This document shows positions 62,168 to 62,947 of a stretch of DNA of 64,000 bases, in pieces. The translations under genes were made by a program, and so were the position numbers. The stretch lies in the NCBI RefSeq assembly GCF_057098645.1, contig NZ_CM169472.1. The stretch is one strand, 5' to 3'. The notes beneath the pieces were generated by a model. It was given only the letters and a program-made list of their open reading frames with translations, ran no database searches and had not been told where the DNA came from. Every line of letters starts with the position of its first letter. Positions within the stretch are counted from its first letter, which is position 1.

Positions 62168-62482
62168 TTAGCATTTTTTTGACCGCGCGTTTCCGGACGT
62201 ATTCTGTTCTCCTGTCCCTTTATATCGTCGGAATACCCGCCGCTCTTCAAATCCCATTCCCAACTCAGAATGTAGTCTGTTGACCGCTTGTTTTATTTCG
62301 GTCAGGTTCACCGGTGAAACCGGAGTCCGGCGCGCCTTACGCAAACACTCTGCTCGTTTCTGTGCCGCCACTTTTCTTTTCTGGTCATCACTTAGCTGTA
62401 CCATCACTTTTGCCCATCGTTCAGCTGCTCTCCGGTACAGTCCTTTTTTCTCCAGACATTCTGCCACGTGATCATGTAGCAT
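62168..62482 (-). CDS. PerC/Pch-family transcriptional regulator candidate
   Basis: N-terminal ...AECLEKKGLYRRAAERWAKVM... resembles the signature region of PerC/Pch prophage-encoded virulence regulators; long AT-rich upstream region. Confidence 0.5.
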   Translation of the reverse strand: MLHDHVAECLEKKGLYRRAAERWAKVMVQLSDDQKRKVAAQKRAECLRKARRTPVSPVNLTEIKQAVNRLHSELGMGFEERRVFRRYKGTGEQNTSGNARSKKC

Positions 62483-62947
62483 AAGTGACCTCCGATTATC
62501 TACAGACTGCCATCCTGAATTTACCTTCCCTTAATGAAATAACAATAAAAAACAAACCACGCAAAAACAATAAAACAACACACAAAAAAAACTAAATAAT
62601 AAACAAAAATAATCACCTTATTTTATTATTTTTTGAGGGAGCAATTACTGAACAAAAAACGCTGACTATATACTCAAAACCAAACAACTATTCTGCCAAT
62701 CAGGTATCATGGCAACACACGGAATTACCGTGTTTTTGCCTTCTCTGCCCATACAATACGGGCATATACTTCATTCTCTATTGTAATATTTCTATCCATG
62801 TGCCCCACTCCATTTACCTGTAAATAATATTCAAAATATTTATCACAGAAATCGTTTTTGGCCATGAACTGAGCACACTATAAAGTCCGGAACTGACTCT
62901 TTGTTAAATTACCTTAACGTTACCAGTAACACCTTCATAACAAAACA

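Follow-up and report, generated by a model that had tools for sequence, protein, structure and literature searches.

We found that the stretch of DNA analysed here (64,000 nucleotides, called the window below) carries a pchA-type group-1 pch gene together with its native leader, and that the two form a 'moron' cassette in a degraded lambda-like prophage of an attaching-and-effacing E. coli (probability about 0.93 for this reading as a whole). The gene is a 104-codon open reading frame that starts with ATG in the ORF list and lies on the minus strand (Table 1). The first-pass annotation had described a 104-aa ORF, with no strand given, and the motif that it quoted (...KKGLYRRAAERWAKVM...) is contained in the product. 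It had also called the product PerC/Pch-like, and we found that this family assignment is far beyond chance: the protein matches the Pfam PerC profile (PF06069) with an E-value of 3.8e-44 and 149.3 bits, as compared to a cut-off of 22.6 bits, covering positions 1-89 of the 90 in the profile. Its sequence agrees with that of Sakai PchA (ECs_1091, NP_309118.1) at every residue (100% identity), and in tblastn it shares 47.1% identity with EPEC PerC over residues 2-88 (pMAR2, NC_011603.1 18493-18747; E 1e-17), a locus that we confirmed as the gene after perA-perB. The alignment to the PerC family, which the first-pass annotation had named beforehand as the deciding check, is thus significant by both measures (E 1e-17 and E 3.8e-44). 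Exactly the same protein is present on at least 1000 public contigs, where it is called 'PerC family transcriptional regulator' or 'PchABC family transcriptional regulator'. Nothing that we found contradicts the identification.

The match to Sakai extends to the DNA. Leader and gene together (780 bp) are identical to the Sakai pchA locus at 779 of 780 nucleotides, the odd base adjoins the Rz stop codon, and both copies lie downstream of Rz/Rz1. The surroundings of the two copies differ, however: Sakai pchA is found at another chromosomal site and in another prophage (Sp4), where it adjoins IS629, whereas the window copy keeps ylcI-cos-nu1. Sakai PchB (ECs_2182, Sp11) and PchC (ECs_2737, Sp14) also have 104 aa and occupy the same slot between Rz and cos, and the order Rz-leader-pch is common to pchA, pchB and pchC. 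Compared to the protein encoded here, PchA, PchB and PchC have 0, 1 and 2 differing residues, respectively (V6L in PchB, V6L and V58M in PchC), and the pchB and pchC leaders differ from this one at 44 and 24 positions, mostly in the T-rich part proximal to the gene, which holds 38 of the 44 differences from pchB.

None of this is new: publications going back to 2004 have described the gene, its family, its prophage site and its function, along with much of how it is controlled at the transcriptional and post-transcriptional levels. What the present analysis adds is mildly useful: a typing of leader alleles, and a small ORF in the leader that lacks coding selection. Since pch genes are master switches above ler and the LEE, their presence, copy number and allele type are relevant when the virulence regulation of a strain is described.

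Table 1. Features of the pch cassette and of the adjoining prophage DNA, with window coordinates.
Feature	Position	Strand	Basis and remarks
Rz spanin gene, directly upstream of pch; Rz1 embedded at 63010-63195	62948-63415	-	Pfam Phage_lysis, E 2.8e-46
AT-rich non-coding leader, putative pch promoter region and 5' UTR	62483-62947	-	33.3% G+C; one base off the Sakai pchA leader
46-codon ORF, probably not a gene	62725-62865	-	hypothetical protein WP_001096930.1 in some RefSeq/GenBank records
Stable hairpin in the distal leader	62711-62740	both	folding compared to shuffles
Candidate weak sigma-70 promoter, TTGCCA-17 nt-AATAGT	62687-62715	-	consensus scan
Proximal T-rich hypervariable leader (leader positions 301-465), A-type here	62483-62647	-	51-copy alignment
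Shine-Dalgarno sequence GGAGG, 6 nt before ATG	62489-62493	-	read from the sequence
pch CDS (104 aa), pchA-type allele, group-1 PchABC regulators	62168-62482	-	ORF list; Pfam PerC; identity to NP_309118.1
Predicted anti-SD element within the CDS, +89 to +100, UAAGUGAUGACC, pairing with -11 to +1	62383-62394	-	partition-function fold
Predicted DicF sRNA pairing site, +79 to +106, overlapping the anti-SD element	62377-62404	-	duplex prediction
Bidirectional intrinsic terminator between convergent pch (-) and ylcI/ynfO-like gene (+)	62105-62131	both	folding compared to shuffles
YlcI/YnfO-family (DUF3950) gene, convergent with pch	61862-62086	+	Pfam E 1.3e-17; RefSeq annotation of near-identical loci
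Lambda-type cos site; cosN GGGCGGCGACCT at 61644-61655	61611-61655	-	exact 45-nt match
Terminase small subunit (Nu1-like)	60951-61460	-	Pfam Phage_Nu1
Terminase large-subunit N-terminal fragment	60035-61036	-	cut off by the IS3-family element
IS3-family element	58796-60009		NCBIfam transpos_IS3; ALIL frameshift pseudoknot at 59612-59728

To place the protein within its family, we used an alignment of nine PerC-family sequences spanning Escherichia, Salmonella, Klebsiella and Pantoea. The family motif LExKG[LF]YRRAAxRW is present in this Pch, and the invariant columns of the alignment are A7, L10, E11, G14, R17, R18, A19, A20, R22, W23, R36, C46, G75 and R85. PerC of EPEC E2348/69, which is carried on the EAF plasmid pMAR2, shares with Pch the Pfam family, the 47% identity, the motif and, according to the literature, activation of LEE1/ler. 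It is unlike Pch in that it has 89 aa, lacks the basic C-terminal tail and is plasmid-borne as the third gene of perABC; because just 49 bp separate perC from perB, a long leader is missing there. We found no relative of Pch when the PDB was searched by sequence. From the nine-sequence alignment we built an AlphaFold2 model, whose mean pLDDT is 76, with values above 90 for residues 11-50; it predicts helices at residues 5-13, 16-29, 33-51 and 60-73 followed by a disordered basic tail. When the model was compared to the PDB with Foldseek, no match was better than E 1.5 and there were only weak TPR/MIT-like hairpins; the model thus does not hint at the way in which Pch contacts DNA, a gap that concerns the PerC family in general rather than this locus.

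The first-pass annotation had put the gene in the company of Pch proteins on lambdoid prophages, and its position agrees: pch is part of a lambda-like prophage and occupies the interval bounded by Rz/Rz1 and cos. Read along the minus strand, the order is Rz/Rz1, leader and pch, terminator, the convergent ylcI/ynfO-like gene, cos, nu1 and a fragment of the terminase large subunit. The terminator, a strong one, consists of an A-tract, an 11-bp stem and a T-tract, and its folding energies for the two strands are -14.7 kcal/mol (z -4.2) and -11.9 kcal/mol (z -3.9). The cos segment is identical over all 45 nt to the left end of phage lambda, where zero such matches are expected by chance. The identity takes in cosN and the sequence that flanks it, although the genes nearby are no more than lambda-like. 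In the lambdoid map the interval between Rz and cos holds moron genes, bor among them. Like bor, pch is a lysogenic-conversion gene in this slot with its own control signals; the two are unrelated in sequence, and lambda bor is transcribed against the late operon while pch is co-directional with it.

The prophage is degraded: there are two IS3 elements, the terminase is truncated and the structural genes are missing. Two adjacent IS3-family transposase genes span 57764-60009, and the same interruption of the terminase is annotated in strain Z1323HEC0399. At the end of the prophage next to yodB, 5-7 kb from pch, lie nleF and a fragment of nleH. These type III effector genes occupy 55575-57034 on the minus strand; nleF was recognised by Pfam NleF_casp_inhib, and the truncated nleH scores below its NCBIfam cut-off. 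Past the effector genes the chromosomal genes yodB, zinT, msrQP, hiuH, hprRS and hchA follow, and the junction on the yodB side is the yodB-serU integration site, which in Sakai is occupied by Sp14 with pchC. The window copy is thus an A allele at the site where the Sakai chromosome has pchC. The nearby nleF and nleH, together with nearest relatives of serotypes O145:H28, O103:H2 and O26:H11, suggest an attaching-and-effacing host; the window does not contain the LEE itself.

To see how widely the cassette occurs, we searched complete E. coli genomes with the 780-bp leader and gene. Of the 5426 genomes, 672 have it, the median copy number being three, and every record that bears it has one place covering at least 80% of the 780 bp. 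A sensitive search with the leader only returned the same 672 genomes, and in none of the 687 records with a leader is it shortened; therefore, in this collection the leader never occurs without pch. Copies that are 100% identical to the cassette are present in many O26:H11, O145:H28, O103:H2 and O157:H7 genomes. Among viral contigs, 80 from IMG/VR share the arrangement Rz-leader-pch, with a full-length leader in 79, the terminator in 78, ylcI in 73 and a full or partial Rz in 78. The phage GenBank collection yielded just two matches to the cassette, both of them short fragments without annotation.

What the gene does is known from published work on the identical gene. Adherence and full expression of ler and the LEE depend on pchA, pchB and pchC (Iyoda & Watanabe 2004, as cited in PMC4456613 and PMC6265319), and Pch binds the LEE1 promoter region and lowers its occupancy by H-NS/StpA, thus acting as an anti-silencer (PMC4764244). 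Given its identity to Sakai PchA, this copy would also activate LEE1/ler: Pch would bind the LEE1/ler promoter region and loosen the H-NS/StpA nucleoprotein complex, and ler, once on, would turn on the LEE type III secretion system and many effector genes. Upstream of this, the reported inputs to pchA are LrhA, butyrate acting through Lrp and LeuO, and ppGpp (PMC4456613), as well as NtrC/sigma-S/LrhA (PMC10714755, PMC13012123), and the SOS response enhances the group-1 pch genes (PMC6265319). In our reading the 465-bp leader would provide pch with a promoter of its own and with a long 5' UTR, as the literature has it for pchA and as near-identity to that locus suggests here, and host signals would act on it via LrhA, Lrp/LeuO (butyrate), ppGpp and NtrC/sigma-S.

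We took the leader as 465 bp because the upstream gene on the same strand, Rz, ends at 62948, which leaves this interval between pch and Rz free of genes. The 'about 460 bp' of AT-rich upstream DNA in the first-pass annotation is therefore a good description of it: 465 bp at 33.3% G+C that accompany the gene, as compared to 49.2% for the pch ORF and 49.5% for the 64-kb window. Across the 64 kb, just 1.8% of all segments of this length are as AT-rich, and in 100-bp steps the local G+C falls to 23-29% at 62500-62700. Rfam scans at the gathering threshold and at E<=1 (61400-63000) found no family in the leader, and in the same scans there was no DicF gene within the 64-kb window. The fold of -150 to +80 (numbered from the start codon) is no more stable than its shuffles (z -0.11); taken as a whole, the leader thus does not stand out as a structured RNA. 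Promoter-like sites are no commoner around pch than in shuffled sequence, and the TTGCCA-17-AATAGT element is the only one found; this candidate promoter is therefore a lead only. A local hairpin in the distal leader folds with -16.7 kcal/mol (minus strand) and -14.8 kcal/mol (plus strand), z being about -4 in either case, and no shuffle folds as well. We considered this hairpin as a terminator and rejected it, since on the pch strand it has no U-run and the run on the other strand is weak. The hairpin overlaps the -35 hexamer of the sole sigma-70-like site.

Translation of pch may be controlled from within the coding sequence. For pchA it is reported that an anti-SD sequence in the CDS sequesters the ribosome-binding site and that at low oxygen the small RNA DicF pairs there and activates translation (Melson & Kendall 2019, as summarised in PMC7769764, PMC7873438 and PMC9438474). 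This documented control is absent from the first-pass annotation. In our predictions the Shine-Dalgarno sequence is mostly base-paired in every fragment length that we folded, and its partners change with length. When -200 to +315 was folded, positions -11, -10 and -7 to +1 of the SD region pair with +89 to +100 with a probability of about 0.59; in shorter fragments they have other partners. We also looked for DicF pairing, using as query nt 1-26 of DicF from the annotated K-12 record, which lie mostly 5' of its terminator hairpin, with shuffled mRNAs as control. The best duplex falls at +79 to +106 with -25.6 kcal/mol, an energy equalled by 1 of 100 shuffled mRNAs (mean -18.4, sd 2.1). The restricted query was used in place of an unrestricted duplex search, which gave inflated and uninterpretable energies, and for the middle of DicF (nt 20-42) no pairing in the pch mRNA is better than chance. 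The stretch of the CDS that contains the SD, anti-SD and DicF elements is identical among pchA, pchB and pchC. Another anti-SD sequence, ACUCCGG at +155, pairs with the SD in the duplex search, and we rejected it for its lower probability in the full-length fold; DicF could not mask it, because DicF has the same polarity there. In this copy the SD and the elements predicted for anti-SD and DicF pairing are all intact, which is consistent with the published pchA mechanism, by which pairing of the ribosome-binding site with the anti-SD segment would hold translation back and, at low oxygen, pairing of DicF with that segment would set the site free.

To find out where the cassette varies, we counted variable alignment columns over 51 distinct copies (those on the viral contigs and Sakai pchA). 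There are 2.9 variable columns per 100 nt in the CDS, 27.7 in the distal leader (positions 1-300) and 72 in the proximal leader (positions 301-465). Three types of proximal leader can be told apart, A, B and C, and they correspond to those of Sakai pchA, pchB and pchC; among the 80 IMG/VR loci there are 53 A, 19 B and 7 C alleles. It is conceivable, though we consider it doubtful, that the leader is a modular regulatory cartridge whose A, B and C alleles recombine among prophages and wire one activator to different host signals. If this were true, swaps of leader alleles would tune the timing of the LEE in a strain while the protein stays unchanged. A different response of pchA and pchB to LrhA has already been published (Honda 2009, as cited in PMC4456613), so that only the generalisation would be new.

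The AT-richness of the leader, in which the first-pass annotation saw a mark of H-NS-silenced acquired regulators, raises the question of whether the leader is mainly a nucleation site for H-NS, which would silence pch until counter-silencers act. We consider this plausible, at somewhat less than even odds. The low G+C that marks H-NS-silenced acquired genes is found here (33.3% as compared to 49.5%, among the lowest 1.8%), the G+C is 23-29% locally and there are long T/A tracts. LeuO and LrhA-type activators frequently serve as counter-silencers. The AT-richness, which is what points to silencing of pch, can be set beside the general finding that horizontally acquired AT-rich DNA, EHEC prophage virulence loci included, is covered by H-NS (PMC4764244). 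However, the H-NS consensus TCGATAAATT has one match in the leader at up to 2 mismatches and is not enriched in the window (71 matches observed as compared to 64 expected), the literature that we searched has no report of H-NS binding to or repressing pch itself, and Pch is described as opposing H-NS at LEE1 rather than as one of its targets (PMC4764244). In any case, silencing by H-NS is compatible with our reading of a pchA-type gene with its native leader and is not an alternative to it.

A different account would make pch mainly a passenger of the late operon, read through from pR' via S-R-Rz, with the 'leader' as spacer DNA. pch, Rz and the lysis genes are all on the same strand, we found no terminator-like site on the minus strand in the interval between Rz and pch, and the order in the intact-looking Sakai prophages Sp11 and Sp14 is Q-S-R-Rz-pch-nu1-A. 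Because pch is co-directional with the late genes and no terminator follows Rz, some late read-through into pch is to be expected; by inference from lambda biology, Q-antiterminated late transcription would run into pch when the prophage is induced, and this fits the report that SOS induction raises the expression of group-1 pch genes (PMC6265319). Here such read-through may no longer occur, because the prophage is degraded (the Q/pR' region is outside the window). As the main mode of expression, however, we consider it unlikely. In uninduced lysogens pchA is expressed and is regulated by LrhA, butyrate/Lrp and ppGpp (PMC4456613), Sakai pchA is functional although it lies in a rearranged segment and is inverted relative to the Q antiterminator of its prophage, and the leader is full length in every copy, which a plain spacer would not need to be.

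We also asked whether part of the leader encodes a small protein of 46 aa, annotated as hypothetical (WP_001096930.1) in some RefSeq/GenBank records and seen on 577 contigs. The ORF is unbroken in 48 of 52 distinct copies; the other 4 have a frameshift or have lost the start codon. Its distinct substitutions are 23 nonsynonymous and 5 synonymous, which is the neutral pattern (18.6% synonymous are expected without selection), in contrast to the pch CDS, where 9 nonsynonymous and 14 synonymous distinct changes indicate purifying selection. There is no SD upstream of its ATG and no Pfam match to its product, and a plasmid-borne relative of pch lacks the ORF-bearing distal leader, its distal upstream region being unalignable. 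The ORF is also missing from the translated small intergenic genes of Sakai (PMC5597208 supplements), a list in which multi-copy read mapping may hide it. Based on the neutral substitution pattern and the absence from this list we ruled it out as a gene, and its annotation is probably an artefact; a partly coding leader is thus highly improbable.

Just as improbable is the idea that this pch copy is a dead remnant of a decaying prophage, without a role, as the terminase large subunit cut by an IS3 element, the second IS3 that adjoins it, the lack of any head or tail gene between the IS3 elements and the effector genes, and a related strain in which pch itself is truncated by an IS might suggest: the ORF, SD, leader and terminator are intact, leader and gene are one base off the functional Sakai pchA, and that gene likewise lies in a rearranged prophage segment, flanked by IS629.

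Elsewhere in the window, a P2-like prophage occupies approximately 11700-47250, with tail sheath, minor-tail/tape-measure-like, gpP-type terminase, portal and gpA replication protein genes and an integrase gene at 46060-47247; it also includes a gene with Mu-transposase/rve domains (40291-41934) and a Dam-class methyltransferase gene (42470-43384). Before it lie two core-genome sRNA genes, DsrA (305-391, minus strand, 102 bits) and rseX (8727-8816, plus strand, 99 bits), and a porin gene (9059-10201).
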